Shown: positions 13,781 to 43,087 of the stretch, piece after piece | Layout: every line of letters begins with the position of its first letter | Numbering within the stretch: position 1 is the stretch's first letter | DNA from: Candidatus Acidiferrales bacterium | GTDB taxonomy: Bacteria > Acidobacteriota > Terriglobia > Acidiferrales > UBA7541 | Assembly: GCA_046704165.1 (NCBI GenBank) | Contig: JBJKSI010000125.1 | Span: 5,672 to 69,671 of the forward strand | Reading direction: 5' to 3' | DNA length: 64,000 nt | Translations under genes and position numbers: made by a program | Notes under the pieces: generated by a model | Told to the model about the DNA's origin: nothing | The model's database searches: none | Seen by the model: the letters and a program-made list of their open reading frames with translations, nothing else

Positions 13781-13859
13781 CGGGGAAAAGCCGCCGACGG
13801 GCCCTTCAGGCAGCGCATTGAAGCGGTAAGCGCCAGGGGAAGGGCGAGCGGCCGGATCG

Positions 13860-16964: not shown

Positions 16965-17314
16965 CTACCGACACTACCGGCAACGTAGCCGTGGTCGAGA
17001 TCCCCGTTGACGAGTTGGATGCCAGCAACGCCGGAGAACTGAAGCGCGACATCGCTCCGGTGCTGGAAAGCCACACACGTCTGGTGATCGACATGAGCCG
17101 GCTGCGTTTCATCGATAGCTCCGGGCTGGGCGCGATGCTCTCGTGCTTGCGGCAGGTGAGCGCCAAACAGGGCGACCTGAAGCTGTGCTGCATGACGCGG
17201 CAGGTTCGCGGCACGTTCGAACTGGTGCGCATGCACCGCATCTTCGACATCTTTCCCACGCGGGAGGAAGCCGTGCGCGCATTCCGTGCTCAAGGGGACG
17301 GGCACGCGAAATGA
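16955..17314 (+). CDS. STAS-domain anti-sigma-factor antagonist (SpoIIAA/RsbV-like)
   Basis: 119 aa. LVIDMSRLRFIDSSGLGAMLSCLRQV carries the conserved phosphorylatable Ser in DSSGLG. It overlaps the sensor gene by 10 nt and glgP by 4 nt (ATGA). Confidence 0.9.
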   Translation: MELATDTTGNVAVVEIPVDELDASNAGELKRDIAPVLESHTRLVIDMSRLRFIDSSGLGAMLSCLRQVSAKQGDLKLCCMTRQVRGTFELVRMHRIFDIFPTREEAVRAFRAQGDGHAK

Positions 17315-19764
17315 ACCCCTCGGTCAACGCCGTGGACGAGGCGGCAGCGAGCATCGAGGAAGCAATCTGCCGGCACGCGAAGTATTCGCTGGGTAAGGCG
17401 TGGCCGGATCTTTCCCCGCAAGACCGGTTCGCAGCGGTAGCGCTGGCCGTGCGCGACCGGATGGTGGACGGAATGCTGGAGACCGAGCGGCGGTGCGGGC
17501 GGGAAGACCCCAAGCGGTTGCATTACCTCTCCATCGAATTCCTGATCGGGCAGTCGTTGGGCAATAACCTGCGAAACCTGGGCCTTCGGGACGCGTGCCG
17601 GCAGGCTCTGCGGAACCTGGGCGCCAGCCTGGAGGAAATCGAGGAGAGCGAGCCGGACGCAGCGCTGGGCAACGGTGGGCTGGGGCGGCTGGCGGCCTGC
17701 TTCCTGGATTCGCTGGCCACGCTGCGTCTGCCCGGCTACGGCTATGGGATCAACTACGAGTACGGCTTGTTCAAGCAGGAGATCGACAACGGATACCAGC
17801 GGGAGAAGCCGGAGAACTGGCTGGCGCAAAGCAGTCCCTGGCAGATCGAGCGGCCCGATGAAGCCTGCATAGTGCCGGTCTACGGACGGATCGAGCACGG
17901 CGTGGATCGCCAAGGCGTCTACAACCCGATGTGGATGGACTGGAAGCTGCTGATCGGTGTTCCCTACGACATGCTCATCCCGGGTTACGGCGGGGAGGCG
18001 GTGCACGTTCTACGGCTCTACGCGGCGCGATCGTCCCACGATTTCGACATGCAGATCTTCAACGACGGTGATTATTTCAAAGCCGTGGAGCAGAAGATCG
18101 CCTCGGAGACCGTGTCGAAGGTGCTTTACCCTTCGGACGCAGTGATCGCCGGGCACGAGCTGCGGCTGGTGCAGGAGTACTTCCTGGTGGCCTGCGCACT
18201 GCGCGACATCGTGCGCCGGTTCGAGCAGCGGCACACGGACTTTCGCGAACTGCCGGGCAAGGCAGCCATCCAGCTGAACGACACGCATCCGGCGCTGGCG
18301 GTGACGGAGCTGATGCGAATCCTGGTGGACGAGAAGAGCCTGGAGTGGGAAGAGGCGTGGGAGATCACGCGGGCCACGCTGGCCTACACGAACCATACGC
18401 TAGCGCCGGAAGCGCTGGAGAAATGGCCGGTACCACTGCTGGAATCCATGCTGCCGCGACACTTGCAGCTGATCTACGAAATCAATGGGCGTTTCCTGCG
18501 GCAGGTGGCCGCGGCCTTTCCCGGCGACAGGGCCCGGCAACAGCGCATGTCGCTGATCGAGGAATCGGCGACGAAGCAGGCGCGCATGGTGAACCTGGCA
18601 ATTGTTGGCAGCCATTCGGTGAACGGCGTTTCGAAGATTCATACGAAGGCGTTTGAGACGATGCTGGTTCCCGATTTCTACGAGCTGTGGCCGGAGAAAT
18701 TTTCCAACAAAACGAACGGCATCACGCAGCGGCGCTGGCTGCTCGAGGCCAATCCGCGGCTGGCGGACCTGATCACGTCGACCATCGGCGACGGTTGGAT
18801 TACCGACCTGGACCGGTTGCGGGAACTCGAACGATTTTCCGAGGATTCGGGCTTTCAATCGGCTTTCGCCAAGATCAAGCGCGCGAACAAGGAGCATCTG
18901 GCCGAGATCATCCGCGAAACCACTCGGGTGGAGGCGAACCCGGATTCGCTCTTTGACGTCCACGTGAAGCGGATTCACGTTTACAAGCGGCAACTGCTGA
19001 ATGTGATGCACGTGGTGCACGAATATCTCTCTCTGATCGAGGACGGAACGACGCCGGCGGCGCCGCGAACCTTCCTCTTCGCCGGCAAGGCGGCGCCCGG
19101 CTACCGTCTCGCCAAGCAGATCATCAAGCTGATTCACAATGTGGCGCGCGTCATCAATCGCGACCCACGGGCGGCCGAGTGGATCAAGGTGGGTTTTCTG
19201 CCGGACTATCGTGTGTCGCTGGCTGAGAAGATCTTTCCCGCCGCCGACCTCAGCGAGCAGATCTCGACCGCCGGGACGGAAGCTTCAGGCACGAGCAACA
19301 TGAAGCTGGCGCTGAGCGGCGCGATCACTATCGGTACGCTCGACGGGGCCAACATCGAAATTCTCGAAGAGGTAGGCAGGGAGAACATGTTCCTCTTCGG
19401 CAAGCAGACGGCGGAGCTTCGGGCGATGCGCGAAGCGGAATCCTACCACCCGCAGGAAATCTGCAAGCGGGATCCTCGCGTACAGCGGGTCGTCGAAGCG
19501 TTCAATTCGCGGCTGTTCTGCCCCGGGGAGCCGGGCCTTTTCGCCTGGGTGCCTCCGATGCTGCTCGATCCCGGCGACAAATACTTCCACCTGGCCGATT
19601 TTCCAGACTGCCTCGGGGCGCACGAGCGAGCGGCACAGGCGTACGTCGATACGGGCCGGTGGCGGCGCATGTCAATCCTGAACGTGGCGCGCATCGGGAG
19701 GTTTTCGAGCGATCGCACGGTGGCGGAGTATGCGCGGGAGATCTGGCAGCTGAAAAGCGTATAG
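17311..19764 (+). CDS. glgP: Glycogen/maltodextrin phosphorylase
   Basis: Start ATG 17311 (MNPSVNAVDEAAASIEEAICRHAKYSLGK). YLSIEFLIGQSLGNNL, NGGLGRLAACFLDS, and the PLP-Lys motif EQISTAGTEASGTSNMKLALSGAITIGTLDGANIEI. The track ORF from 17143 is an out-of-context upstream extension. Confidence 0.95.
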   Translation: MNPSVNAVDEAAASIEEAICRHAKYSLGKAWPDLSPQDRFAAVALAVRDRMVDGMLETERRCGREDPKRLHYLSIEFLIGQSLGNNLRNLGLRDACRQALRNLGASLEEIEESEPDAALGNGGLGRLAACFLDSLATLRLPGYGYGINYEYGLFKQEIDNGYQREKPENWLAQSSPWQIERPDEACIVPVYGRIEHGVDRQGVYNPMWMDWKLLIGVPYDMLIPGYGGEAVHVLRLYAARSSHDFDMQIFNDGDYFKAVEQKIASETVSKVLYPSDAVIAGHELRLVQEYFLVACALRDIVRRFEQRHTDFRELPGKAAIQLNDTHPALAVTELMRILVDEKSLEWEEAWEITRATLAYTNHTLAPEALEKWPVPLLESMLPRHLQLIYEINGRFLRQVAAAFPGDRARQQRMSLIEESATKQARMVNLAIVGSHSVNGVSKIHTKAFETMLVPDFYELWPEKFSNKTNGITQRRWLLEANPRLADLITSTIGDGWITDLDRLRELERFSEDSGFQSAFAKIKRANKEHLAEIIRETTRVEANPDSLFDVHVKRIHVYKRQLLNVMHVVHEYLSLIEDGTTPAAPRTFLFAGKAAPGYRLAKQIIKLIHNVARVINRDPRAAEWIKVGFLPDYRVSLAEKIFPAADLSEQISTAGTEASGTSNMKLALSGAITIGTLDGANIEILEEVGRENMFLFGKQTAELRAMREAESYHPQEICKRDPRVQRVVEAFNSRLFCPGEPGLFAWVPPMLLDPGDKYFHLADFPDCLGAHERAAQAYVDTGRWRRMSILNVARIGRFSSDRTVAEYAREIWQLKSV

Positions 19765-19882: not shown

Positions 19883-19955
19883 TGGGCCCGCCTGGATTCG
19901 AACCAGGGACCGATGGATTATGAGTCCACTGCTCTGACCGCTGAGCTACGGGCCC
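19883..19955 (-). tRNA. tRNA with CAT anticodon (elongator Met, or Ile2 if lysidine-modified)
   Basis: The reverse complement GGGCCCGTAGCTCAGCGGTCAGAGCAGTGGACTCATAATCCATCGGTCCCTGGTTCGAATCCAGGCGGGCCCA folds as a cloverleaf. Acceptor stem GGGCCCG/CGGGCCC, D stem GCTC/GAGC, anticodon loop CTCATAA, T arm CCTGG-TTCGAAT-CCAGG. A paired 1:72 base pair argues against an initiator tRNA. CCA is not encoded. Confidence 0.9.
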
Positions 19956-20199: not shown

Positions 20200-20973
20200 G
20201 TGCGCAGGGAGAACGACGTCGCGAAGCTGGACACGCCGGCTTCCCGAACCTCGCAGGAGCGACCCGCAGACCGGGAGAGTAGTTTGAAAACGAATTGCAC
20301 GGAATGCCCCATCCTCAACAACACACTTTTCCGCAGCCTCTCGACCGACCAGGTGTCGAGGTTCAATTGCATCTTTCGTCCCGCGCACTACCGAAGAAAC
20401 CAGATCATTTTCTTCGAGGGTGGCGCGGCCGATCACCTGTTCGCCATGAATTCCGGACTGGTGAAACTGGTGAAGTCGCTTGAGAACGGCCGGGAGCGCA
20501 TCACGCGCGTCCTCTTTCCCGGTGAGCTGTTCGGCCTGGAGGCGCTGAGCGAAGAGACGTATCCACTGACGGCGGTGGTGCTGCACGATGCCAAGATCTG
20601 CGCCATTCCCTGCCGGGAGTTTTTCTCTTTCCTGCACGGCAATTCCGATATTTCGCTCGACATGATCCGTTTCCTGCTGGGCGAACTCTCCCGGATGCGG
20701 AAGCAGATGACGGCGATGAGTTTCAAGGACGCCCGAGCGCGGGTGGCAATGTTCGTACTATCGCTGCTCTCGCCGGAGTTGTTGGGTAGTGGGCAGGCCT
20801 GCTCGCTCACGCTGCCCGTGACGAGCCACGAGATCGGCGAGATCCTGGAGCTCTCTCCCGAGACAGTCAGCCGGGCCTGGAGCTTCCTGCGTAGGGAAGG
20901 CCTGATTGAAAAGCGTGGCCGGGAACTGGTGATTCAGAACCTGCAGGGACTCGAAGGAGCGGCCAGCCGCTGA
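20200..20973 (+). CDS. Crp/Fnr-family transcriptional regulator
   Basis: cNMP-binding-like barrel (IIFFEGGAADHLFAMNSGLVKLVKSLENGRERITRVLFPGELFGLEAL) and C-terminal HTH (TSHEIGEILELSPETVSRAWSFLRREGLI). The start is uncertain; an in-frame TTG at 20284 follows GGGAGAG. Confidence 0.85.
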   Translation: MRRENDVAKLDTPASRTSQERPADRESSLKTNCTECPILNNTLFRSLSTDQVSRFNCIFRPAHYRRNQIIFFEGGAADHLFAMNSGLVKLVKSLENGRERITRVLFPGELFGLEALSEETYPLTAVVLHDAKICAIPCREFFSFLHGNSDISLDMIRFLLGELSRMRKQMTAMSFKDARARVAMFVLSLLSPELLGSGQACSLTLPVTSHEIGEILELSPETVSRAWSFLRREGLIEKRGRELVIQNLQGLEGAASR

Positions 20974-20995
20974 GTCTGGCGTGTTCCTCCCGGAT

Positions 20996-21018
20996 TTCTC
21001 CCCGTCGACGAAGGGGAG
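20996..21018 (+). terminator. Hairpin after the Crp/Fnr gene
   Basis: TCTCCCC-GTCGACGAA-GGGGAGA (7-bp stem) located 23 nt after the stop. No U-tract. Confidence 0.3.
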
Positions 21019-21104
21019 AGCCTTGCCGGAGTCGCGGCCGCCCGGGCAAACGGATTTGGGAAAAACGGTCTTCCCGCCGCATTGAACGCCTCATCTAAAC
21101 CTAC

Positions 21105-21134
21105 TAGTTGGCCAAATTAAAGCAATTAGTTGGC
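21105..21134 (+). repeat. Direct repeat TAGTTGGC x2 in an AT-rich island upstream of the propeller/haem operon
   Basis: TAGTTGGC occurs at 21105-21112 and 21127-21134, a 22-nt register (about two helical turns). It is embedded in CTAGTTGGCCAAATTAAAGCAATTAGTTGGCGCTAG, one of the most AT-rich stretches I noticed by eye. It is followed by TTGACT (21141) and by TTGACG-17 nt-TAGCGT (21176-21204). Confidence 0.35.
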
Positions 21135-21290
21135 GCTAGATTGACTTTTGCCATCCTACTTTAGCTCATCCGTCATTGACGCTGTTTCCCCCCTTGCCTA
21201 GCGTTACCAGACTGCCTTTGCGGGCAAACGCAGTTCAGCCAGCTCTTTAGCGGCATTCTTCGGGCCGGTTCGCATGCGGTCCAAGGGGAA

Positions 21291-22799
21291 TTGGAAACGG
21301 TGGAACAGGGCGGTGGCAGGAATCCAAGAACTTCAAGGTTTGAAAACGTATACCGAATCGTCCCGGTTATTGCGTTCCTCGTGGTTTTAGGCCTCGCCTT
21401 CGGCATTACGAGACAGTCCTTTGCAAGACCGGAACCGAGGTCGGCCGGCGTGTTGCCGCCGATCATCTTTGTCGAGGCACCGGTGGTAGTGCCTGGCTCT
21501 CCGTCGACGCGTTTTCCCCGCGGAAGCCATTTGGCACTTCTTCCACCGGCCACGCCCGCCACTACTCCTGTAAACCTGACCCCGGACTTCTTCGCCGCGG
21601 CTGATCCGCAGGTTTCCTTCGATGGCCGCCGGGTGCTCTTTGCCGGGCGGAAGACGCGGGCTGGGCACTGGCAGATCTGGGAAATGAACGTCGACGGCAC
21701 GGGCAAGAAACAGATCACCAGTGGCCGCGCGGACTGTTTCCGTCCGGCCTATCTGCCCCGAAACGAAATCGTCTACACGAGGGTGAGCGCACAGGAAGGC
21801 GCGCGCACGTCGGCGATCTACGTGGCCGGCCTGGACGGTTCCGGCGCCCATCCGATCACGTTTGGGCCCGGCGATTTCCGCGTGGAAGCCGTGCTGCACA
21901 GTGGACGAATCCTGATTTCGGCCGGATCGCGGCTGGTTTCCGGCCGCCGAGTCGAAGGATCACGGGTGTTCTACACGGTGCGAACGGATGGCTCTGGACT
22001 CAGCCTGTTTCGCTGGGACCGCCATGCGGGCGTGGTGCAGGGCGGAGCGGTTGAACTGAGGAACGGCACGGTTCTCTTCGTGGAGCGGAGAGACGGCCCT
22101 GATCGCGTAGGCGGCGGCGAGTTGGCGTGGTTCCGGCCGGGCGCGCTGCAGGATTCAAGGATCACCGCACCAGGCGCGGTTTACTGGTCGGCCAAGCGGC
22201 TGGATGGAGACCGTTTGGTTGTGGCAAAGAGGAGTTCCGACGGTCGCGGCGCGCAGGGCACATTCGGCCTCTACGTTTTCGATCTGGCCAGGCAGTCGGT
22301 GGGCAAGGCGATCTATCGCAATCCGAAGCTCTCCAGCGTGGAAGCGGTGGCCGTGGAGCCGCGTCGCGTGCCCAGGGAATATTGGAGCATCCTGCATCCC
22401 AAGCGCGATTACGGCCGGCTGATCTGCCTGAACGCCTATCTTTCCTCCGATGTGGCCTCGGGACGGCTCTCGGGAGAGATCGCTCGAGTGCGAGTGGTCG
22501 CGCTGGAACACCACCGGCAGAGAACCCTGGGCGAGGCGCCGGTGGAAAGCGACGGCTCGTTCTACGTAAAGGTGCCGGCTAATCGCCCGATTCGGTTCGA
22601 GTTGCTGAACGCGAAGGGAAAGGTGATCCACCAGCAGCAGAGCTGGATCTGGGCGCGCACGGGCGAGGACGTGCCTTGCCTGGGCTGCCATGAGAGCAAG
22701 GCGCTGGCGCCGCAGGATCGCTGGCCGCTGGCGCTGAGGGCACCCGGCGCTCCGTTTCCGCTCGGCGTGCCGGCGACTTCCCATTCCGCAACACATTGA
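21291..22799 (+). CDS. Membrane-anchored TolB-like beta-propeller protein with HzsA-like C-terminal module carrying one CxxCH haem-c motif
   Basis: 502 aa. TM helix IVPVIAFLVVLGLAFGI. TolB-type blades (PQVSFDGRRVLFAGRKTRAGHWQIWEMNVDGTGKKQIT; IYVAGLDGSGAHPITFG). C-terminal DGSFYVKVPANRPIRFELLNAKGKVI..WIWARTGEDVPCLGCHE. The start is a TTG and is uncertain. Confidence 0.6.
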   Translation: METVEQGGGRNPRTSRFENVYRIVPVIAFLVVLGLAFGITRQSFARPEPRSAGVLPPIIFVEAPVVVPGSPSTRFPRGSHLALLPPATPATTPVNLTPDFFAAADPQVSFDGRRVLFAGRKTRAGHWQIWEMNVDGTGKKQITSGRADCFRPAYLPRNEIVYTRVSAQEGARTSAIYVAGLDGSGAHPITFGPGDFRVEAVLHSGRILISAGSRLVSGRRVEGSRVFYTVRTDGSGLSLFRWDRHAGVVQGGAVELRNGTVLFVERRDGPDRVGGGELAWFRPGALQDSRITAPGAVYWSAKRLDGDRLVVAKRSSDGRGAQGTFGLYVFDLARQSVGKAIYRNPKLSSVEAVAVEPRRVPREYWSILHPKRDYGRLICLNAYLSSDVASGRLSGEIARVRVVALEHHRQRTLGEAPVESDGSFYVKVPANRPIRFELLNAKGKVIHQQQSWIWARTGEDVPCLGCHESKALAPQDRWPLALRAPGAPFPLGVPATSHSATH

Positions 22800-22806
22800 G
22801 GAGTTT

Positions 22807-24516
22807 ATGAGCATCTCCCGAAGGGACTTTCTGAGACTGGGCGCGGCCGGAGGAGCGCTGCTTGCAGTGCCGGGGATCTGGGTGGGCGCCGTCGAACCAC
22901 GGGCCGATTCAGCGATCGCCCTGCCTCAGTTCCTGGACGTGACCGCGAAGGCCGGCATCGATTTCCAGCACTCGTTCGGCGAAACGGAGCTGAGCTCGAT
23001 TCTGGAGGGGACGGGTTCTGGTTGCGTCTGGTTCGACTACAACAACGACGGCTTGCTCGACCTCTACGTCGTGAACGGGCGCTACGTGGAGGGCCTGACA
23101 AACCATTCGGAGCCCTCCGGCCGGAACGCCACGAACCATCTGTACCGGAACAACGGCGACGGCACGTTCACGGACGTGACCGCGGAAGCAGGCGTCGGCG
23201 GCAAAGGGCTGGGCACGGGCGTGACGGTAGGCGATTTCGACAACGACGGTTACCAGGACATCTACGTTACCGGATACAAGTTCGCCATCCTGTATCACAA
23301 CAACGGCGACGGCACGTTCACCGACGTGACGGGCGACGCCGGCGTGGACAATCCTTTCTTCGGCGTCGGTGCGGCGTTTCTCGATTATGACCGCGACGGG
23401 CACCTGGACCTGTTCGTCGGCAATTACCTGAATTTCGTGCCTTCCTACCACCAGTTCTACCCGGGAGACCATTACCCGGGACCGCTTGACTACCAGCCCG
23501 AATTCAACCGGCTGTTCCACAACAACGGCAACGGCACGTTTACCGACGTCTCAAAGCAATCGGGCATCGGGCGGGTGGCGGGCCGGGCGATGGGCGTGAC
23601 CGTGGGTGATTTCGACAACGACGGCTGGCCGGACATCTACGTCGCCAACGACAACATGCCCAGCTACCTCTACCACAACAACCGGGACGGCACGTTCAGC
23701 AATGTCGCCGCCAGCCTGAACGTGGCTTACGGGCAAGACGGTGAAGCGACCAGTGCCATGGGGCCGATCTTTGGCGATTACGACAACGACGGCTGGCAGG
23801 ACCTGTTCGTCTCCGATGCCCGTTTTCACCGGTTGTTCCACAACCCGGGCAAGGCCGGCGGACTCTTCGAGGACGTGACCAACCAGTCGGGTATCGGCGC
23901 TATCTGCGGGCAGTACACCGGTTGGGGCGACGGATTTTTCGATTACGACAACGACGGCTGGAAAGACATCTTCATCGTCAACGGCGGTCTGACCTGGCTG
24001 ATCCCGATGGAAAGCAATCTGCTGCGAAACAACGGCAACGGGAGGTTCACCGACGTCTCAAAGACGTCCGGCAGCTTCTTCACTCAGCGCCACGTGAACC
24101 GGGGCGTCTGCTTCGGCGACTACGACAATGACGGCTATCTCGACGCCTTCGTCAACACATTGGGCGGCAAGGGCATTCTGTTGCACAACACGCCGACCGA
24201 AGACGCGCGCAACCACTGGCTGACGGTGAAGCTGGTGGGCACGCGGAGCAATCGCGACGGCTACGGCGCTGCATTGGAGGCTGTTGCGGGCGATCTGCAC
24301 CAGTACGTGCAGGCTGTTTCGGGCTCCGGCTACCTGAGCCAAAGCGATTCACGGCCGCATTTCGGGCTGGGCTCGCATGAGCGGGTGGACAAGCTGATCG
24401 TTCGCTGGCCGAGCGGGACCGTCCAGACGCTCGAGAACATAAAAGCGGACCAGATCCTGACGGTGCGAGAGCCTGCTGGGCCGGCGCCCGCCGCGAAACC
24501 AGGCAAGGCGAGATGA
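22807..24516 (+). CDS. CRTAC1-family protein (FG-GAP/VCBS repeats plus ASPIC/UnbV C-terminal domain), Tat-exported
   Basis: 569 aa. Twin-arginine signal MSISRRDFLRLGAAGGALLAVPG. Repeated FDYNNDGLLDLYVVNG / GDFDNDGYQDIYV / GDYDNDGWQDLFV motifs. UnbV_ASPIC tail WLTVKLVGTRSNRDGYGAALEA...SGYLSQSDSRPHFGLG...VRWPSG. Confidence 0.85.
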   Translation: MSISRRDFLRLGAAGGALLAVPGIWVGAVEPRADSAIALPQFLDVTAKAGIDFQHSFGETELSSILEGTGSGCVWFDYNNDGLLDLYVVNGRYVEGLTNHSEPSGRNATNHLYRNNGDGTFTDVTAEAGVGGKGLGTGVTVGDFDNDGYQDIYVTGYKFAILYHNNGDGTFTDVTGDAGVDNPFFGVGAAFLDYDRDGHLDLFVGNYLNFVPSYHQFYPGDHYPGPLDYQPEFNRLFHNNGNGTFTDVSKQSGIGRVAGRAMGVTVGDFDNDGWPDIYVANDNMPSYLYHNNRDGTFSNVAASLNVAYGQDGEATSAMGPIFGDYDNDGWQDLFVSDARFHRLFHNPGKAGGLFEDVTNQSGIGAICGQYTGWGDGFFDYDNDGWKDIFIVNGGLTWLIPMESNLLRNNGNGRFTDVSKTSGSFFTQRHVNRGVCFGDYDNDGYLDAFVNTLGGKGILLHNTPTEDARNHWLTVKLVGTRSNRDGYGAALEAVAGDLHQYVQAVSGSGYLSQSDSRPHFGLGSHERVDKLIVRWPSGTVQTLENIKADQILTVREPAGPAPAAKPGKAR

Positions 24517-26477
24517 AGATGCGCTTGGAAAAAGAGGCAGGCAGGAAACGCAGCCGGCGCTGGCCGGTGCTAATGGGATCGCTTGGGTTGCTGTTGCTAG
24601 TGGCGGCGTTCGGCGCGCAGCGCTCGCAGGGCCGCGCGACCGACTGGCAGAGGCAGGTGCCCGGCGGAGGGCCGAGCTACCTCGATCCGATCGCGTTGAA
24701 GCTCTCGCCGCACGGCAAGCGGCTCTACGTTGTGTGCGAGGGCAACGACGAGTTGCTGGTGGTGAATACGCGCACGAGGTACGTCATCGGGCGGGTGAAG
24801 GTGGGGCATCGGCCAGAGGGGATTGCGGTGTCGCCGGACGGGAAGACGCTCTACGTTTCGAACCAATGGAGTGACTCGGTTTCGGTGATCGACGCGGCTA
24901 CGCTGCAAGTGGTGCGGACGCTGAAAACCGGCTGGGGCCCGGTGGGCGTGACGACCGACGGTTCCGGAAAGTTCCTCTATACCGCGAATACGCTTGGGGA
25001 CGACGTCTCGGTGATCGACCTGGCAACGGGCAGGGAGCTCAAGCGGCTGGCCGCCGGCCATTTCCCGGAATACGTCGCTCGCTCGCGGAACGGCCGCTGG
25101 ATCTACGTGGCGAATCTGCTTGCGCACGTGGCGCCGCCGCACGTGACGCCGTCCGCGCAGCTGACGGTGATCGATGCGGAGCGGCAGGTGGTAGCCAACC
25201 GGATCATGATTCCCGGCGCGATCCAGTTGCGGCGCATTGCGCAGGTGCCGGCAAAGGAAGGCGGCTACCTGCTGATCCCGTTTCTGCAACCCCACAATCT
25301 GATCCCGCTGATTCAGTTGCAGCAAGGCTGGTACGTGTCGCACGGCATGGCGGTGATCCGGTTGCCCGCGTCGGGCCGGGGGAAAGCGCGGGTGATCGAG
25401 GTGCTGCTCGACAACATCGACCACGCCTACGCGGACGGATTTGGCGCCGCTTGCTCCCGCAACGGGAAACTGGCGCTGGTGACGGCATCGGGCGCGAACG
25501 TAGTTTCGGTGATCGACGTAGCGAAGCTCGCCCGTCTGCTCGACCGCGTGCCGCGCAACGATCCCGAGGCGCTGGCTGACCGGCTGGATTCGGCACGGCA
25601 GTTCGTGCTCCGGCGCGTACCCACCGGGCGCAACCCGACTGCGGTGGTGATCTCGCCCGACAGCAGCACCGCCTACGTTGCCGACCGGACCGACGATACG
25701 CTGACCGTTGTGAACTTGCGGCGGCTGGGAGCGACCGCGACGATCCGGCTGGGCGGGCCGAAAGTGATCACGCGGCGGCGGCGCGGCCAGCAACTGTTTT
25801 TCGACGCACGTTTCTGCTACCAGGGCCAGGTGGCCTGCGCCACCTGCCATCCGCACGAGGGGTTTGAAGACGCGCTGGTCTGGAGCCTGGAGACGCCGGA
25901 TCTGGGCCGCGACGTCACCGAAAACCGTACTCTGCTGCAGATCGCCGGCACCTCGCCCTTCAAATGGAACGGCCTGAACCCGAACCTGGCGACGCAGGAT
26001 GGTCCGCGCACCGCGATGTACATTTTCCGCTCGCAGGGATTCAGCCACACCCAGGTGCAGGACCTCGTCCGCTTCATCCGCTCACTGCGGCTGCCGCCCA
26101 ATCCGCACCTTGGCCCCGGCGGCCGGCTGAACGCCCAGCAGCGGCGTGGGCGCGCGATTTTCTTCCGCACGAAGACGAACACCGGAGAGATCATCCCGGA
26201 TCGAGACCGCTGCTACTACTGCCACGCGCCGCTGACCCATTACACCTCCCGGGTCAAGGAGAACGTAGGCACGGGGACGCGGTACGACACGGACAAGATA
26301 TTCGATGTGCCCCAGCTCCAGGGCATATACATGCGGCCGCCGTACCTGCACAACGGCGAGGCGCTGACGCTCGAAGAGATCTGGACCAAGTACAACCCGA
26401 AGGACAAGCACGGCTACACCTCCGACATGAACAAGGTGCAGTTGAACGACCTGATCGAGTTTCTGAAGACCTTATGA
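24513..26477 (+). CDS. YVTN beta-propeller fused to a di-haem cytochrome c peroxidase/MauG-like domain
   Basis: 654 aa. The start overlaps the previous stop (ATGA). YVTN repeats (GHRPEGIAVSPDGKTLYVSNQWSDSVSVIDAATLQVV; GRNPTAVVISPDSSTAYVADRTDDTLTVVNL). Two CxxCH motifs (CATCHPHEG and CYYCHAPL) lie in a CCP-like C-terminus. Confidence 0.8.
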   Translation: MKMRLEKEAGRKRSRRWPVLMGSLGLLLLVAAFGAQRSQGRATDWQRQVPGGGPSYLDPIALKLSPHGKRLYVVCEGNDELLVVNTRTRYVIGRVKVGHRPEGIAVSPDGKTLYVSNQWSDSVSVIDAATLQVVRTLKTGWGPVGVTTDGSGKFLYTANTLGDDVSVIDLATGRELKRLAAGHFPEYVARSRNGRWIYVANLLAHVAPPHVTPSAQLTVIDAERQVVANRIMIPGAIQLRRIAQVPAKEGGYLLIPFLQPHNLIPLIQLQQGWYVSHGMAVIRLPASGRGKARVIEVLLDNIDHAYADGFGAACSRNGKLALVTASGANVVSVIDVAKLARLLDRVPRNDPEALADRLDSARQFVLRRVPTGRNPTAVVISPDSSTAYVADRTDDTLTVVNLRRLGATATIRLGGPKVITRRRRGQQLFFDARFCYQGQVACATCHPHEGFEDALVWSLETPDLGRDVTENRTLLQIAGTSPFKWNGLNPNLATQDGPRTAMYIFRSQGFSHTQVQDLVRFIRSLRLPPNPHLGPGGRLNAQQRRGRAIFFRTKTNTGEIIPDRDRCYYCHAPLTHYTSRVKENVGTGTRYDTDKIFDVPQLQGIYMRPPYLHNGEALTLEEIWTKYNPKDKHGYTSDMNKVQLNDLIEFLKTL

Positions 26478-26529
26478 CGCGGACCGGGGCATTCCCGGAT
26501 CGGCGGGCGAGCGGCCCCTGGAGGGAAAG

Positions 26530-27690
26530 ATGAGAAAGTCGTTGCTGACGTGGCTGCTGGTAAGCGCACTGGTGCTGATCGCGGCGACGGGCCTGGCGGC
26601 CGCGGGCCCGAAGGCGCAGACGCCTGCGCTCTACGCGAAATGGGTCAACTACACGCCGGCGAACGGTTTCCCTGGGGGCGAGGTGTACTGCGTGACGGTG
26701 GACGGCAACCGCGTCTGGGCGGGGACCACGCACGGGCTGGTGCTGATCGAAAACGGCCGGGTGAAGAAAGTGTTCACGAAGGCCGATGGCCTGCCAGGCG
26801 AGGCGGTGATGTCGATCGCCGTGAACAAGCAGACCGGCGACGTCTGGGTGGGCACCTTCGGCGGGCTGAGCCGGTATTCGGCCGGGCAGTTCACCAGCTT
26901 CACGAACCTGACCAGCGGACTGGCGAACGACTTGGTCTACAGCGTGGCCGTGCAGGGTAGATACGTCTGGGCGGCGACGGCCGCGGGCGTCAGCCGGTAT
27001 GACACGTTTACCGGCGACTGGAAGATTTTCAGCGACCAGAACTCGCCGTTCAAGGAGCCGTGGGCCTACGCGGTCGCGCTTGGTCCGCGGAAGGTCTACA
27101 TGGGCTTGTGGGGCGGCGGCGTGCTCGTCTATGACATCGCTCACCGCTACTGGCGGCCCTACCTCGATCCGGACGGGTCGATGGAGATCGTGCTGTACCG
27201 CAACCAGGGCCTGATCCACAACATGGTGAGCAGCATCGCCTACGACCGGGCGACGAAGATGTTTTGGGCCGGCACCTATTTTGGCCTGAGCGGCTACGAC
27301 GGGCGCGACTGGCACAACTACCTGAAGAAGGACAGCGGTCTGATCTCGGATTTCGTCAACGGTGTGCAGGTGCGCGGCAACGACGTGTGGGTGAGCACGC
27401 AGAAAGGTCTCAGCGAGCTCGACTACAAGACGAACACCTGGGTGACCTATCGGCCCGCCGACTGGCGCTCCCTCGACACGGCCAAGGCCAGAAAGGCCAA
27501 GGGCGGCGAAATCCTGATCACCTATCCCGGCGGCACCAAGCGCCGGATCAGGACGGTCACCTCGCTACCCCACAACTACATCCTGAATGTCGCCTTGCAA
27601 GGCAGGAACATCTGGGTGGCCACGGCCGACGGACTGAGTCACGGCATTCAGCAGCCCGAAAAGAAACAGGAAAGAGGAGGGACACGATGA
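26530..27690 (+). CDS. Secreted 'two-component regulator propeller' (Reg_prop-like) beta-propeller protein
   Basis: 386 aa. Signal peptide MRKSLLTWLLVSALVLIAATGLAAA. Repeated approximately 45-aa units of the type VWAGTTHGLVLIENG / VWVGTFGGLSRYSAGQ / VWAATAAGVSRYD / FWAGTYFGLSGYDG / VWVSTQKGLSELD / IWVATADGLSHG. Confidence 0.65.
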   Translation: MRKSLLTWLLVSALVLIAATGLAAAGPKAQTPALYAKWVNYTPANGFPGGEVYCVTVDGNRVWAGTTHGLVLIENGRVKKVFTKADGLPGEAVMSIAVNKQTGDVWVGTFGGLSRYSAGQFTSFTNLTSGLANDLVYSVAVQGRYVWAATAAGVSRYDTFTGDWKIFSDQNSPFKEPWAYAVALGPRKVYMGLWGGGVLVYDIAHRYWRPYLDPDGSMEIVLYRNQGLIHNMVSSIAYDRATKMFWAGTYFGLSGYDGRDWHNYLKKDSGLISDFVNGVQVRGNDVWVSTQKGLSELDYKTNTWVTYRPADWRSLDTAKARKAKGGEILITYPGGTKRRIRTVTSLPHNYILNVALQGRNIWVATADGLSHGIQQPEKKQERGGTR

Positions 27691-28187
27691 GTCAGAGAAC
27701 AGGCGGCACCAGCGTCATTTCGGAGAAGGAGACGCACAAGCCGGTCTCGCGGAAAGCCATTTGCGCTCCGCAGGCCCTGAACGAGGCGTACGACTATGAC
27801 CGCCCGTCTTCCTTTTCGCGCGGCCTGCGCCTCGACATCAAGGGAGTGACGATCCTGCTGATTTCGGGGACGGCCAGCATCGACGAGCAGGGCCGCAGCG
27901 TGCACGAGGGCGATTTTCGCGCCCAGACGCTGCGCGCCTACCAGAACATCACGGCACTGCTCGAAGCCGAGGGCGCTTCGTGGAAGGACGTGGTGCGCAC
28001 CACCTGCTACCTCCGCGACATCGAGCGCGATTATGCCGTCTTCAACGAGATCCGCACCGGGTTTTTCCGGGAGCAGCGATTGAACCCGCTGCCGGCGTCC
28101 ACCGGCATCCAGGCAATTCTGTGCCGGCCGGAATTGCTGATTGAAATGGAAGCGATGGCAATCTTCGAATCGCCCGAGCGGGGCTAG
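27687..28187 (+). CDS. RidA/YjgF-superfamily protein lacking the canonical Arg (Arg-less Rid or chorismatase-core-like)
   Basis: 166 aa. The ATG overlaps the previous stop (ATGA). ILLISGTASIDEQGRSVHEGDFRAQTLRAYQNITALLEAEGASWKDVVRTTCYLRDIERDYAVFNEIRTGFF...PASTGIQAIL..ELLIEMEAMA follows the YjgF fold pattern. It has PAS where RidA has PAR. Confidence 0.75.
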   Translation: MSQRTGGTSVISEKETHKPVSRKAICAPQALNEAYDYDRPSSFSRGLRLDIKGVTILLISGTASIDEQGRSVHEGDFRAQTLRAYQNITALLEAEGASWKDVVRTTCYLRDIERDYAVFNEIRTGFFREQRLNPLPASTGIQAILCRPELLIEMEAMAIFESPERG

Positions 28188-28323: not shown

Positions 28324-29229
28324 GTGAAGATCGCAGGTAAAGTTACGCTCGCCGATCTTCCCAGAATCTGTCCGCTGGTGTGCCGAAAGACCAATCCAGG
28401 CTACGGCAACGACCATCTGCGTGTGGTCGAGGTGAGCGGCGTGCGATTCGGCCTGGACCTGCCGGTGGTGATTGCCGGTCCCTGCGCTGTGGAAAGCTGG
28501 GACCAGACGCTAAAGGTGGCGCGGCTGGCCAAGGAGGCTGGTGCCGACATGCTGCGCGGCGGAGCATTCAAGCCGCGTACCTCACCGCACGATTTCCAGG
28601 GGCTGGGCGTCGAGGGCTTGAAGATCCTCCGTGCGGCCGGCGACGAGACCGGCCTGCCGGTAGTGACCGAGGTGATCGACGTACGGCTGGTCGAGACGGT
28701 AGCCCGCTATGCCGACATGCTGCAGATCGGCGCGCGTAGCATGCAGAATTATCCGCTGCTGGTGGAGGTTGGCCGCGCGGGCAAGCCCGTGCTGCTGAAG
28801 CGCGGCATGGCGGCGAGCCTGTGCGAATGGCTGGGCTCTGCCGAATATATAGCCAATGAGGGCAATCTGGAGATCGTCCTCTGCGAGCGGGGGATCAAGG
28901 CACACCCGGGCGGCGAATATTCTCGATTCTCCCTGGACCTGAACGTGATCCCGGCGGTGCACGAGCAGACGTTCCTGCCAGTGATTGTCGATCCCAGCCA
29001 CGCGACAGGCGTGGCGGCGATGGTCGAGCCGGCCAGCCGCGGCGCGCTCGAATTCGGTTGCGACGGACTGATCATCGAGATAGCCGACGACTGCGAGAGC
29101 CGGCAGCGGCCGCAGTGCGACGCCGACCAGGCGATCGGCGCGGCGACGCTACGCCGGATCGTCGACTTCGCCAAATATCGCGAAGAGCCCGCACAGCAAA
29201 AGATTTCGGAAACGACGACGGTCAACTAG
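28324..29229 (+). CDS. 3-deoxy-7-phosphoheptulonate (DAHP) synthase, type I-beta (KDO8PS-like family)
   Basis: 301 aa. [72 protein letters not shown] 28324 lies 6 nt after GGGAGG. No ACT/FL or chorismate-mutase regulatory extension is obvious. Confidence 0.9.
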
Positions 29230-32004: not shown

Positions 32005-33711
32005 ATGCCAGGCCTGAATTCCGGTTCCGACATCTACGACGTCATCATCGTCGGTTCGGGCGCCGGTGGCGGCATGGCCGCCTACAACCTGACGAAGGCC
32101 GGCGCCAAGTGCCTGATGCTCGAGGCCGGTGGCTGGTACGATGCCGCCAAAGACTCGAAGTGGCTGGAATGGGTCTACGACGCCCCGCACCGCGGCGACG
32201 TGAAGCCGCACCCCACACTCGACTATTTCATGGCCGTTGTCGGTGGTTGGCAGGTGAAGGGTGAGCCATACGTTCTGGCCCGCGGCAGCAAGTTTATGTG
32301 GTTTCGCTCGCGGATGCTCGGCGGCCGGACGAATGCCTGGGGCCGTATCTCGCTCCGCATGGGACCCTACGATTTCAAGCCGCACAGCCGCGACGGCAAG
32401 GGGTTCGACTGGCCCATCGCCTACGAAGACCTGGCGCCCTATTACGACAAGACCGAGGAACTGATTGGCGTCTTCGGGTCAAAGGAGGGTTTGGAAAACC
32501 TGCCCGATGGGAAGTTTCTGCCGCCGCCAGCGCCGCGCTGCTACGAGTTGCTCGTCCAGCAGGCGTGCCAAAAACTCAATATCCCCTGCATCCCGTCGCG
32601 GCTGGCAATCCTCACGCGGCCGCTCCACGGCCGGCCCTCGTGCCACTACGTGTCGCAATGCGGCCGCTGCTGCCGGATGGGCTCGAATTTTTCCTCGCCG
32701 GTCGTGCTGCTGACGCCGGCGCGGATGACCGGCAATCTGGAGATACGCACTGACGCGATGGTGCGGCAGGTGCTGACCGGGCCCGACGGCCGGGCCACCG
32801 GCGTCTCCTACATCGACAAGAAAACGCGGCAGGAGGTGCAGGTCCACGCCAAGGTGGTGGTGCTGGCGGCCAGTTCGTGCGAGACGTCGCGGCTGCTGCT
32901 GAATTCCCGCAGCAGCCGGTTCCCCGACGGGATCGGCAACTCCGGCGGCATGGTGGGTAAATATGTGATGGACACCGTCATGTCGGACGTGAGCGGCTTT
33001 GTCCCAAAAATGATGGATCTGCCGCCGCACAACGGTGATGGCGTCGGCGGCATGCACCTCTACATGCCGTGGTGGAACTACCAGAAGCAGGCGCGGAACG
33101 AAATGCCATTTTCGCGCGGCTATCACATCGAATTCAGTGGTGGCCGCCAGGGTATGCCTTCGCCGGGCATCGTGGGGGGAACGGGCTGGCTGCTGGATGC
33201 CGGGTACGGCAAGCAGTTGAAGCAAGATTGCCGGAAACTCTACGGCTCGTTCCTCTATCTGACTGGCCGCGGCGAAATGATTCCCAACGAAAAGAGCTAC
33301 TGCGAAATCGACAACAAAGTCGTGGACGAGTGGGGCATCCCGGTCCTGAAATTCCATTTCGAGTGGGGCCGGGACGAGATCCTGATGGCTCGCCATATGC
33401 AAAAAACCTTTCGGAAGATCATTGAGACCGCCGGGGGGCAGGTGACGGAATCGTTTGACGCCGACGACCAGTGGGGCATTTCCGAGGGCGGCCAGGGAAT
33501 TCATGAGGTGGGTGGGGTACGCATGGGCAGCGATCCGAAGAGTTCGGTGCTCAATCCCCACTGTCAGGCGTGGGACTGTAAAAACCTCTTCGTCGCCGAT
33601 GGCGGGCCCTTCGTCAGTCTGTCGAACAAGAACCCGACGCTGACGATCATGGCGCTTGCCTGGCGCACGTCGGAATACATCACCGATCAGATGCGGAAAG
33701 GAAATCTCTAG
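32005..33711 (+). CDS. GMC-family FAD-dependent oxidoreductase
   Basis: ATG 32005. Rossmann motif YDVIIVGSGAGGGMAAYNLTKAGAKCLMLEAG. C-terminal GMC segment HEVGGVRMGSDPKSSVLNPHCQAWDCKNLFVADGGPFVSLSNKNPTLTIMALAWR. Confidence 0.9.
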   Translation: MPGLNSGSDIYDVIIVGSGAGGGMAAYNLTKAGAKCLMLEAGGWYDAAKDSKWLEWVYDAPHRGDVKPHPTLDYFMAVVGGWQVKGEPYVLARGSKFMWFRSRMLGGRTNAWGRISLRMGPYDFKPHSRDGKGFDWPIAYEDLAPYYDKTEELIGVFGSKEGLENLPDGKFLPPPAPRCYELLVQQACQKLNIPCIPSRLAILTRPLHGRPSCHYVSQCGRCCRMGSNFSSPVVLLTPARMTGNLEIRTDAMVRQVLTGPDGRATGVSYIDKKTRQEVQVHAKVVVLAASSCETSRLLLNSRSSRFPDGIGNSGGMVGKYVMDTVMSDVSGFVPKMMDLPPHNGDGVGGMHLYMPWWNYQKQARNEMPFSRGYHIEFSGGRQGMPSPGIVGGTGWLLDAGYGKQLKQDCRKLYGSFLYLTGRGEMIPNEKSYCEIDNKVVDEWGIPVLKFHFEWGRDEILMARHMQKTFRKIIETAGGQVTESFDADDQWGISEGGQGIHEVGGVRMGSDPKSSVLNPHCQAWDCKNLFVADGGPFVSLSNKNPTLTIMALAWRTSEYITDQMRKGNL

Positions 33712-33751: not shown

Positions 33752-34393
33752 ATGGAAGACAAACCGAAAGACAAAGGCCTGCGTTTTGAGCGGCGCGACT
33801 TCCTGAAGTTCATCACCGCCGTGCAGGCGGCAGCGCTGGTTTCCCTCACGCCGTTCGCCGCTCAGGCGGCGCGCGCTATGCCTCCGCAAGCTGCCGCGTC
33901 GCAGGCCGCGGCCGGCGGGCATCCCAAGGCCTTGAATCCCCACGAGTGGCGAACCATCCGCATTCTCTGTAACTGGCTGCTGCCGGCCGACGAGCGCTCG
34001 GGCGGGGCCATCGAAGCCGGCGTGCCGGAGTTTCTCGACGACTGGCTGAACTGGAAACGCGGTGATCTGCTCGACGAGATTCGCGGCGGACTCACCTGGA
34101 TCGACATGGAGAGCAACCGCTCGTTCCAATACGATTTCGCCGATTGCTCCGCCGGGCAGCAGAAACAGATCCTCGACCGGATTGCCTTTCCGAAGAAGGC
34201 GGCTCCGGAAGACGCCAGCGCGGCTGCTTTTTTCAACGATCTGCGCGATCTGGTGGTTAGTGGCTATTTCACCAGCCGGATGGGCATCCGCGAACTCCCC
34301 TACCTGGGCAACCAGCCGCAGTCGGCTTGGCATGGATGCCCAGAGGAAGTGATGGCCAAGCTGGAAGTGGGCAAGTTCAGCCGAAACGCCTGA
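33752..34393 (+). CDS. Gluconate 2-dehydrogenase subunit-3-family small Tat subunit
   Basis: ATG 33752. Tat signal RFERRDFLKFITAVQAAALV. NPHEWRTIRILCNWLLPADERSGGAIEAGVPEFLD is typical of the small partner of membrane-associated GMC dehydrogenases. Confidence 0.7.
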   Translation: MEDKPKDKGLRFERRDFLKFITAVQAAALVSLTPFAAQAARAMPPQAAASQAAAGGHPKALNPHEWRTIRILCNWLLPADERSGGAIEAGVPEFLDDWLNWKRGDLLDEIRGGLTWIDMESNRSFQYDFADCSAGQQKQILDRIAFPKKAAPEDASAAAFFNDLRDLVVSGYFTSRMGIRELPYLGNQPQSAWHGCPEEVMAKLEVGKFSRNA

Positions 34394-42903: not shown

Positions 42904-43087
42904 GGGCAGGAGACGGCGGACCGCGTTAGGCGGCGATCAACCAGGCAGCTGTGCCTTCGTGTTGAAGGGTGTCTTGCGGCGCCGGGGACACTTCGCTCAG
43001 CGCGACAGCGACGGCGTTTATCGGTGGCCGCTAAGGTTTTCGTGCCGCCTGCTGTTCCCGCTGCCCGCGGAATGGAGGGACTGTCCA

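Follow-up and report, generated by a model that had tools for sequence, protein, structure and literature searches.

Hydrazine synthase-like haem proteins in a conserved acidobacterial gene cluster with a possible dehydrogenase partner

The 64,000-nucleotide stretch of a Candidatus Acidiferrales contig analysed here (JBJKSI010000125.1; hereafter the window, from whose first nucleotide all positions are counted) carries between positions 21291 and 34393 a predicted ten-gene operon of about 13 kb, whose first and third genes encode homologues of hydrazine synthase (HZS) subunits. Since both proteins match the HZS families of NCBIfam and, in PDB sequence searches as well as in Foldseek structure comparisons, the chains of the HZS structure 5c2v, they are the two halves of an HZS-like complex. 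An annotation made earlier from the letters of this DNA, referred to below as the original prediction, had described region 20200-27690 as a Crp/Fnr regulator gene followed by four genes for functionally obscure propeller proteins, taken together as one extracytoplasmic redox unit with no characterised equivalent. Its five open reading frames (ORFs), their haem motifs, the twin-arginine translocation (Tat) motif and the spacings between genes were all recovered from coordinates, translations and Pfam TAT_signal, and each of its domain calls (Crp/Fnr, HZS_alpha, FG-GAP/UnbV_ASPIC, YVTN-type/CCP_MauG and Reg_prop) is confirmed by Pfam. The finding is real: the cluster is a conserved system, of a kind that has been described but is biochemically uncharacterised. 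Two of the four supposedly obscure and independent propellers are HZS subunit homologues, and the unit comprises ten genes in place of four, including those of a dehydrogenase that is a plausible electron donor.

Gene 1 encodes a truncated HzsA homologue of 502 residues, compared with a length of 804 for the NCBIfam hydrazine_alpha model, and lacks the alpha-II haem domain. It matches Pfam HZS_alpha (69 bits, 4e-19) and hydrazine_alpha (1e-25, 89.5 bits for a cut-off of 800), and its sole PDB sequence match is HZS alpha (5c2v_A, 5e-19), in line with the HzsA-like module originally recognised in it. Foldseek placed 5c2v_A first for the AlphaFold2 (AF2) model of the protein (pLDDT 87, pTM 0.86), with an E-value of 5e-26 and a TMq of 0.72, 16 orders of magnitude ahead of the runner-up TolB (3e-10). 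The protein is built of a signal peptide or anchor, a six-bladed propeller, the HZS_alpha middle domain and one C-terminal haem c motif; the only CxxCH in its translation is CLGCH (residues 463-467), whose H467 stands at the alpha-His587 position in the alignment with 5c2v_A. A homologue search returned 423 clusters (50% identity) with E <= 1e-30, so that the family is a very large one. The C-terminal CxxCH is kept in all 66 full-length ORFs of alpha-like orthologues, one of which shows an extra motif at residue 11, probably because its ORF start was set too far upstream. Among 62 aligned orthologues, C463, C466, H467, C149, C379, a DGSFY motif, W452, W454, R456 and E459 are invariant. The two cysteines outside the haem motif, C149 (aligned with a Cys of Kuenenia HzsA) and C379, are thus shared by proteins from three phyla and could, judging from the alignment, form a disulfide or bind a metal. 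Concerning the membrane anchor assigned to gene 1, the AF2 model does contain an N-terminal helix (residues 23-39), but this helix could instead be a signal peptide, cleaved between SFA and RP. The GTG codon at 21300, 10 nt past AGGGGA, seems a better start than the TTG at 21291; the public call for this gene (449 aa) begins at residue 54 and loses the conserved N-terminal hydrophobic helix.

The product of gene 3 combines a seven-bladed YVTN propeller and a di-haem domain resembling cytochrome c peroxidase (CCP), and is a homologue of an HzsB-HzsC fusion. Its NCBIfam matches are hydrazine_BC, the beta-gamma fusion (4e-51, 173.9 bits, cut-off 1250), hydrazine_beta (5e-44, 151 bits, cut-off 560) and hydrazine_gamma (2e-23, 83 bits, cut-off 625), along with weak matches to MauG and MbnH. 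PDB searches aligned HZS beta across the entire propeller (5c2v_B, 1e-37, residues 59-401) and HZS gamma across the entire haem domain (5c2v_C, 5e-20), compared with 7e-5 for the best true CCP. The YVTN and CCP domains of the original prediction are therefore present (Pfam YNCE/Lactonase and CCP_MauG, the latter with 39.3 bits for a cut-off of 25.6), but the protein is more specifically an HZS beta-gamma homologue. In the AF2 model, built on 30 close homologues, the propeller is confident and has 5c2v_B as its top Foldseek match (7e-30, TMt 0.89), 10 orders of magnitude ahead of the next; the quinohaemoprotein amine dehydrogenase beta subunit (1jju_B) is also among the matches.

The haem motifs of gene 3 are CATCH at 442 (C442/C445/H446) and CYYCH at 567 (C567/C570/H571). 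Two haem motifs are present in 73 beta-gamma-like orthologues and three in 7, and both CxxCH motifs, W485, H613 and H633 are invariant in 75 proteins from three phyla. With gamma residues numbered as chain number plus 39, the alignment with 5c2v_C places W485 opposite gamma-His144, at the Trp position of CCP/MauG, and H633 opposite the histidine of the HzsC 'MHG' motif, a ligand of the bis-His gamma-II haem. The haem of H571 and H633 is therefore probably, as far as the alignment goes, a bis-His electron-transfer haem of the gamma-II type, while the haem of H446 fits a catalytic, His-ligated haem and Trp485 fits a relay between the two, as in CCP/MauG. Gene 3 also shares with the di-haem CCP/MauG proteins (PF03150) the spacing of about 125 residues between the CxxCH pair, the inter-haem Trp (in FKWNG, at the position of FWDGR) and the PYLHNG motif, which contains H613. 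It differs from them, besides its much closer similarity to HZS gamma, in its fusion to a seven-bladed propeller, in the sixth ligand of the second haem, which is apparently His and neither the Met of CCP nor the Tyr of MauG, and in a distal Glu that is not evident.

Residues specific to hydrazine synthesis were then compared. Haem alpha-I of HZS has Tyr591 as a ligand, His587 being diverted to a Zn site. In gene 1 no Tyr follows CLGCH (ESKALAPQDRW...), so that the Tyr591 ligand is missing, and no invariant ligand-capable residue occurs beyond this motif among the 62 alpha-like orthologues, in keeping with a gap of two residues noted by Hagglund et al. 2025. The gamma-I haem of HZS is marked by a third covalent bond to Cys165, by Asp168 near the axial water and by His144 (PMC12758564, PMC12607021), the importance of Asp168 being stated in PMC12607021; in gene 3, Cys165 falls in a gap, Asp168 is replaced by T500 and His144 by W485. 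Since every HZS-specific residue tested is missing, the product of the cluster is not a hydrazine synthase and, on these alignments, is predicted not to make hydrazine; a true hydrazine synthase, or a cryptic anammox metabolism, is ruled out by the same residue tests. The likeness to anammox HzsABC (Kuenenia stuttgartiensis, 5C2V) lies in the folds of the alpha propeller and middle domain, of the beta propeller and of the di-haem gamma subunit, in the alpha-I CxxCH placed at the end of the middle domain as in gene 1, and in the gamma bis-His electron-transfer haem, whose counterpart in gene 3 is probable from the alignment. Scalindua HZS moreover has its beta and gamma subunits fused, like gene 3. 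The differences are an identity of about 19-26% with scores far under the NCBIfam equivalog cut-offs, the lack of the alpha-II haem domain, of Tyr591, of the third thioether of gamma-Cys165 and of gamma-Asp168, the Trp in place of gamma-His144, a reversed gene order, the acidobacterial host and a window without HDH/HAO genes. Domain and profile annotation of the 64-kb window detected neither HAO/HDH nor nir or nor genes.

The distribution of the cluster was studied by searching GTDB, represented by a single genome for each species, with aligned relatives of gene 3, which gave 109 relatives and 80 retained loci, onto which the proteins of the window were mapped by tblastn; the synteny counts below are restricted to loci flanked by sufficient DNA. 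About 80 species-level genomes show the same arrangement of genes. Terriglobia-like loci contain the alpha-like gene in 44 of 51 cases, and in 40 of 47 the CRTAC1-like gene (gene 2) stands between it and the beta-gamma-like gene; the Reg_prop gene (gene 4) comes immediately after the beta-gamma-like gene in 52 of 61 of these loci, and in 8/8 and 5/5 loci of two other groups. Further downstream, the Rid-like gene was retrieved in 40/60 Terriglobia-like loci, DAHP synthase in 33/56, a binding-protein gene in 49/55 (with at least one copy in all three phylum-level groups), the GMC gene in 40/46 and the small-subunit gene 3' of it in 38/44. Bryobacterales-like loci, with beta-gamma-like proteins about 42% identical, have the alpha-like, CRTAC1-like, beta-gamma-like, Reg_prop, Rid-like and binding-protein genes between unrelated flanks. 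In Bacteroidota and one Marinimicrobia genome (38-41% identical) the CRTAC1-like gene comes first, ahead of the alpha-like gene, and the beta-gamma-like proteins have a third haem motif, as in the published clade III. The minimal core of the system across Acidobacteriota, Bacteroidota and Marinimicrobia consists of six genes, for the alpha-like, CRTAC1-like, beta-gamma-like, Reg_prop, Rid-like and LivJ-type proteins. Conserved order, short overlaps or gaps and haem motifs kept in every full-length orthologue uphold the view of a single extracytoplasmic redox unit, for which this neighbourhood comparison had been suggested; of the observations named beforehand as contradicting it (gene order or haem motifs not conserved, unrelated regulation), none was made. 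One of the loci, L080, belongs to a cultured organism, Granulicella sp. L46. A single Acidobacteriota genome (L001, 203-3940, minus strand) has, 6-10 kb upstream of its HZS-like cluster, two pairs of ammonium-transporter and P-II genes, a proximity that may be coincidental.

A comparable arrangement was already published, contrary to the original prediction, as alpha-like, CRTAC1, beta-gamma-like and binding-protein genes of HZS-homologue clades I-III. Hagglund et al. 2025 (Genome Biol Evol evaf244, PMC12758564) described non-anammox HZS homologues in four clades (I-IV) with co-localised alpha-like and fused beta-gamma-like genes, the alpha-like gene being first in clades I-III and a CRTAC1-family FG-GAP gene being intercalated between the two in clades I and II. 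In their description, the alpha-like proteins of clades II and III are missing haem alpha-II together with the final ~100 residues, clade II beta-gamma-like proteins carry no additional haems, Trp takes the place of gamma-His144 and two substrate-binding-protein genes are found downstream; the key HZS residues are not conserved and no function was proposed. The window shares with clade II the gene order, the shortened one-haem alpha-like protein, the two-haem beta-gamma-like protein, the Trp and the two binding-protein genes, and the beta-gamma homologue of Granulicella sp. L46 in the published hit table is locus L080. On these matching features, as distinct from a tree, the cluster very probably belongs to clade II. 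The Reg_prop, Rid-like and DAHP synthase genes, the GMC/3Fe-4S dehydrogenase with its hitchhiker subunit, the reduced variant of the cluster described below and the FNR-type regulator with its box are not mentioned in that paper.

The four propeller genes form the 5' part of the predicted operon (Table 1). The gap of 7 nt between genes 1 and 2 contains GGAG, genes 2 and 3 overlap by ATGA, and the 52-nt gap between genes 3 and 4 contains GGAGGG, while the Crp/Fnr gene is separated from gene 1 by 317 nt. Beyond gene 4 follow six further genes on the plus strand, the last one ending at 34393; the Rid-like gene start overlaps the gene 4 stop (ATGA), and the gaps from the Rid-like gene to the small-subunit gene are 136, 71, 54, 22 and 40 nt. 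The end coordinate formerly given, 27690, thus truncates the cluster, which runs to 34393 and is followed by a MacB-type permease gene on the opposite strand. A consensus promoter scan yielded 0 promoter-like sites, and terminator-like matches were at or under the shuffled expectation.

Table 1. Coordinates of the regulator gene, the candidate promoter elements and the genes of the cluster in the window.
Feature	Position	Strand	Basis
FNR-type Crp/Fnr regulator	20200..20973	+	Pfam cNMP_binding, HTH_Crp_2
FNR-type candidate operator TTGACTTTTGCCAT	21141..21154	+	phylogenetic footprinting
Second conserved promoter element GTCATTGACG (orthologues GTCATCGACG)	21172..21181	+	intergenic alignment
HzsA-like subunit (gene 1)	21291..22799	+	Pfam HZS_alpha, NCBIfam, PDB, Foldseek
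CRTAC1-like FG-GAP propeller with UnbV_ASPIC (gene 2)	22807..24516	+	Pfam, PDB
HzsB-HzsC fusion homologue (gene 3)	24513..26477	+	NCBIfam hydrazine_BC, PDB, Foldseek
Secreted Reg_prop beta-propeller (gene 4)	26530..27690	+	Pfam Reg_prop
Rid-family (YjgF/L-PSP) protein, cytoplasmic	27687..28187	+	Pfam Ribonuc_L-PSP
Type I-beta DAHP synthase	28324..29229	+	NCBIfam above cut-offs
Two secreted LivJ-type solute-binding proteins	29301-30644, 30699-31982	+	Pfam Peripla_BP_6
GMC-family FAD dehydrogenase catalytic subunit, 3Fe-4S Cys motif	32005..33711	+	PDB matches
Tat-signal 'hitchhiker' small subunit (Gluconate_2-dh3)	33752..34393	+	Pfam 5e-27

The last two genes encode proteins related to direct-electron-transfer FAD dehydrogenase complexes (6A2U/8GRJ, 7W2J). 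The best PDB matches of the GMC protein are the FAD glucose dehydrogenase of B. cepacia (6a2u_B/8grj, 2e-47) and the fructose dehydrogenase of Gluconobacter (7w2j_A, 8e-39), and it keeps the equivalents of Cys212, Cys218 and Cys222 (RPSCHYVSQCGRCC paired with RPTCCGNNNCMPIC in the 6a2u_B alignment), in a motif, RP.CHYV.QC.R.C, found in 52 of 56 GMC orthologues. It has no signal peptide, and the small subunit carries a twin-arginine motif, RRDFLK, whose arginines are kept in orthologues. In the described enzymes, the electrons of FAD reach a three-haem cytochrome c subunit through a 3Fe-4S cluster bound by these three Cys, and the Tat signal of a hitchhiker subunit takes the catalytic subunit across the membrane (PMC6719666). 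The window proteins resemble these complexes in the three 3Fe-4S Cys and the Tat hitchhiker subunit; they differ in that Cys213, which forms the inter-subunit disulfide, is a His in the GMC protein, and in that no gene for a three-haem cytochrome c subunit is present, a scan of positions 15000-40000 for CxxCH-containing ORFs having given genes 1 and 3. One extra match of that scan, an ORF in another frame that overlaps the second binding-protein gene, was discounted as spurious. Most loci likewise have no other cytochrome gene within the cluster, and the haem proteins of the operon are the HZS-like pair only, with three haems in total.

In HZS, haem gamma-II receives its electrons from external donors. 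As a conventional cytochrome subunit is lacking and the HZS-like pair are the sole haem proteins, we propose that the dehydrogenase passes its electrons to the haem module, a suggestion put forward tentatively and with a little less than even confidence. The genes concerned also occur together in a reduced cluster found at nine loci, where the beta-gamma-like, GMC and small-subunit genes adjoin one another, either by themselves (L018, L021, L022, L025, L057 and L073) or preceded by the alpha-like gene (L027, L038 and L042); the alpha-like gene is thus present in 3/9, and the propeller, Rid-like and binding-protein genes in 0/9. CRP-type palindromes (GTGAY-N4-RTCAC) occur upstream of several of these reduced variants. 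In L025 the reduced cluster is preceded by a different Crp-family regulator, and the opposite strand encodes a cupredoxin, an Fe-S flavoprotein, a cytochrome b and an eight-haem cytochrome c.

The regulator upstream of gene 1 contains the cNMP_binding and HTH_Crp_2 domains of Pfam, and its best NCBIfam matches are FnrL and Fnr, both far below cut-off; its true start is probably the TTG near 20284. The 16 orthologues compared share, without any change, the recognition helix ELSPETVSR, which is of the E--SR type, along with four Cys. A C-x2-C pair and the Cys of 'ICAIP' match C20, C23 and C122 of E. coli FNR, which together with C29 we take to be the [4Fe-4S] ligands of that protein; the fourth Cys lies about 30 residues further, off the C29 position. 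Of 48 Terriglobia-like loci, 14 have the regulator gene immediately ahead of the one for the alpha-like protein. When 16 intergenic regions between these two genes were footprinted, a box emerged, TTGAY-N4-GTCAT, whose copy in the window, TTGACTTTTGCCAT, is located 150 nt 5' of 21291. The box is found upstream of the alpha-like gene in 13 of the 16 regulator-linked loci (in one of which, L031, the regulator gene is downstream of the cluster), the other three having one-mismatch variants at the aligned position, and in 0 of about 52 regulator-less loci, for a background of 0.042 per kb. A second block, GTCAT(C/T)GACG (GTCATTGACG, orthologues GTCATCGACG), is placed about 15 nt downstream of the box, and an AT-rich block is also common to the 16 aligned regions. 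The search for a Crp/Fnr-type palindrome in 20974-21290 that the original prediction called for hence succeeded by footprinting, and a scan with the E. coli consensus TTGAT-N4-ATCAA (<=2 mismatches) gave 0 matches in this interval and 8 in the window, for 10.4 expected. A sigma-54-like sequence near 21110-21128 (TGGCC-N6-AAGCA) was considered and dropped, as orthologues keep the AT-rich TAAAACAATTA and not GG-N10-GC. Because the box is conserved, and only in loci carrying the regulator, the suspected Crp/Fnr control is supported, and FNR-type control is likely in this lineage (14/48 Terriglobia-like loci), as read from these alignments. Several CCP genes are under FNR-type regulation, like this cluster, and FNR activates bacterial enzymes of this kind, for example the cytochrome c peroxidase YhjA of E. 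coli.

Among the accessory proteins, that of gene 2 has six FG-GAP_3 repeats, UnbV_ASPIC and a TAT_signal match (24.5 bits, cut-off 22.7), and its sole PDB relative is human CRTAC1 (9etn, 3e-20). The Tat export assigned to it holds for the window, where the motif is present, but not in general, since the motif occurs in 23 of 69 CRTAC1-like orthologues and the majority have Sec-type signals; for this reason the idea that the Tat signal reflects a cofactor inserted in the cytoplasm was rejected. A literature search for the bacterial function of CRTAC1-family proteins found nothing relevant. Additional CRTAC1-like genes occur near the cluster in L003/L004 (1-2578) and L084 (16406-20005), one behind a 959-aa TPR/Cytochrome_C554 protein and another fused to TPR (1199 aa), a further association of FG-GAP/ASPIC proteins with TPR repeats and multihaem cytochromes. 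In the PDB, the Reg_prop propeller of gene 4 matches the periplasmic sensors of hybrid two-component systems from Bacteroides (4a2l, 5e-18; 3v9f; 3ott), a likeness to glycan-binding sensor domains.

The Rid-like protein, which has no signal peptide, is the most conserved of the cluster, being 64-83% identical even in Bacteroidota. It matches Pfam Ribonuc_L-PSP (8e-20), TIGR00004 with 57 bits for a cut-off of 106 and, weakly, chorismatase, and a homologue search returned only close Terriglobia orthologues with generic RidA names. At the position of the RidA Arg (E. coli Arg105), for which we take the E. coli motif to be PARS, all orthologues inspected have PAST and lack this residue. Members of the same subfamily, 78-79% identical, are also encoded outside HZS-like clusters (L085, 6472-6990, and L086, 10001-10549), where two TPR proteins precede them and a further TPR protein, with Cytochrome_C554/Paired_CXXCH matches, follows. 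Their neighbours are alpha-L-fucosidase, GH31 and GH3 genes and, in L086, a gene for a TonB-receptor-like outer-membrane protein and fragments of FG-GAP/UnbV_ASPIC genes. On account of these two neighbourhoods, a module of Rid-like, CRTAC1-like and c-type cytochrome genes may recur near glycan-degradation genes.

DAHP synthase, with which the shikimate pathway begins, is identified by NF006421 (342 bits, cut-off 335) and TIGR01361 (307 bits, cut-off 268). Its gene occupies other positions in the Bacteroidota loci L065, L078 and L082, and it has no obvious tie to a periplasmic haem complex. The two binding proteins carry signal peptides, match Pfam Peripla_BP_6 and have 4gnr as best PDB match (6e-29); no ABC permease or ATPase gene stands beside their genes in the cluster.

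The model that best accounts for the whole cluster, and which we hold with a confidence slightly above even, is that of an FNR-controlled, three-haem HZS-like complex fed by the dehydrogenase, as deduced from gene content and alignments. The FNR-type regulator would turn on the operon, probably at low oxygen, and the dehydrogenase would oxidise a periplasmic, probably sugar-like, substrate. Electrons would pass from FAD to the 3Fe-4S cluster and then, the cluster having no three-haem cytochrome subunit of the usual kind among its genes, to the probably bis-His haem of the beta-gamma-like protein (H571/H633), before reaching the catalytic haem (H446) via Trp485. A small oxidant would be reduced there, either H2O2 in the manner of CCP or nitric oxide (NO) in the manner of HZS, and the His-ligated haem of the alpha-like protein would serve as a second site or as an exit. 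The identity of the oxidant is the most doubtful part, any particular candidate being unlikely.

Several points weigh against this model. The GMC and small-subunit genes are missing from the Bryobacterales and Bacteroidota versions of the cluster, and the dehydrogenase is therefore not in the universal core. The haem domain of gene 3 has a pLDDT <50 in the AF2 model, so that what is said here of its haem ligation and distal pocket derives from sequence alignment. The model also leaves the Rid-like protein, DAHP synthase, the binding proteins and the two accessory propellers without a role, and four of these six are core members.

Among the alternatives, the one that survives best, improbable as it appears, is a MauG-like oxidising machine in which H2O2 from the GMC enzyme or the environment would generate a high-valent di-haem species, with hole-hopping through Trp485. 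Its substrate could be a residue of a partner protein, in the course of cofactor maturation, or an aromatic compound or glycan held by the propellers or the binding proteins. The CCP_MauG match above the Pfam cut-off, the weak MauG and MbnH matches and the Trp at the CCP/MauG position are in its favour, and the propeller beside a di-haem domain recalls MADH-MauG and the quinohaemoprotein amine dehydrogenase beta subunit (1jju_B); DAHP synthase and the weak chorismatase match of the Rid-like protein suggest aromatic chemistry. However, the 3Fe-4S ligands of the GMC protein typify dehydrogenases donating to cytochromes and not H2O2-forming oxidases, and in the alignment the second haem has its counterpart in the bis-His one of HZS gamma rather than in that of MauG with its Tyr ligand. 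FNR-type control, which points to low oxygen where H2O2 is scarce, is a weaker argument in the same direction.

Nitrogen-oxide processing coupled to a condensation is a still less probable reading. NO would be reduced at the gamma-I-like haem and the product transferred to the alpha-like haem, where it would be condensed with an amine supplied by the LivJ-type proteins or reduced next to it, the Rid-like protein handling a reactive nitrogen product in the cytoplasm. The two-subunit architecture of HZS is indeed retained, amino-acid/amide-type binding proteins and a Rid-family protein are part of the cross-phylum core, and FNR-type Fe-S regulators also sense NO. Dalcin Martins et al. 2023 moreover proposed HZS-like enzymes as a wider family with alternative substrates. 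Against this, alpha-Tyr591, gamma-Cys165, gamma-Asp168, gamma-His144 and the alpha-II haem are all missing, as Hagglund et al. concur, the 64-kb window is devoid of HAO/HDH, nir and nor genes, and the Rid-like protein lacks the catalytic Arg. The original idea of four independent propellers acting as a new surface redox machine on a polymer or metal, with nothing comparable described, is just as improbable: it agrees with the confirmed operon structure and Crp/Fnr link, with the resemblance of the Reg_prop propeller to glycan-sensing domains and with the recurrence of CRTAC1-like, Rid-like and c554-type cytochrome genes beside glycoside hydrolases, but two of the four proteins are clear HZS subunit homologues in an arrangement already published, the cluster has no outer-membrane or extracellular export component, and no metal-oxidase or polymer-active domain was detected.

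To our knowledge, hydrazine synthase had long been held to be without relatives, and its origin and that of anammox were thus unexplained. The cluster described here is conserved across Acidobacteriota, a dominant phylum in soils, and the FAD/3Fe-4S dehydrogenase link, the six-gene cross-phylum core and the FNR-type operator extend the published description with testable hypotheses. If the favoured model is true and periplasmic sugar oxidation feeds a reductase of peroxide or NO, the complex would offer soil bacteria a new electron sink; if condensation chemistry is involved, it would represent a second biological route related to N-N bond formation. There is a slim chance that HZS-like complexes constitute a large, unrecognised class of two-site haem enzymes for nitrogen-oxide chemistry outside anammox, in soil and sediment bacteria. 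Such enzymes would reduce NO or hydroxylamine at the beta-gamma haem and, at the alpha haem, join it to an amine brought by the LivJ-type binding proteins or process it next to that amine; in Terriglobia the drive would come from periplasmic sugar oxidation via the FAD/3Fe-4S dehydrogenase, and the Rid-like protein would take care of the reactive nitrogen product in the cytoplasm.

The window has a GC content of about 63%; the neighbouring genes, among them those for CarboxypepD_reg/OMP_b-brl_4 receptors and the MacB-type permease, are typical of Acidobacteriota, and the nearest relatives of its proteins come from Terriglobia and Acidobacteriota metagenome-assembled genomes. A tRNA-Met (CAT) gene (19883-19955, minus strand) lies between a glycogen phosphorylase gene (17143-19764) and the Crp/Fnr gene. 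Further upstream, region 12599-16964 contains a gene for a bacterial eRF1-like protein (baeRF family 10) followed by one for a 1034-aa protein with DUF4118, PAS, two GAF, SpoIIE phosphatase and HATPase_c_2 domains, which may form a partner-switching or stress-signalling pair. On the other side of the cluster, a proline-racemase-family ORF (42419-44167) shows, in its longest frame with a predicted start, an N-terminal extension of about 230 residues.

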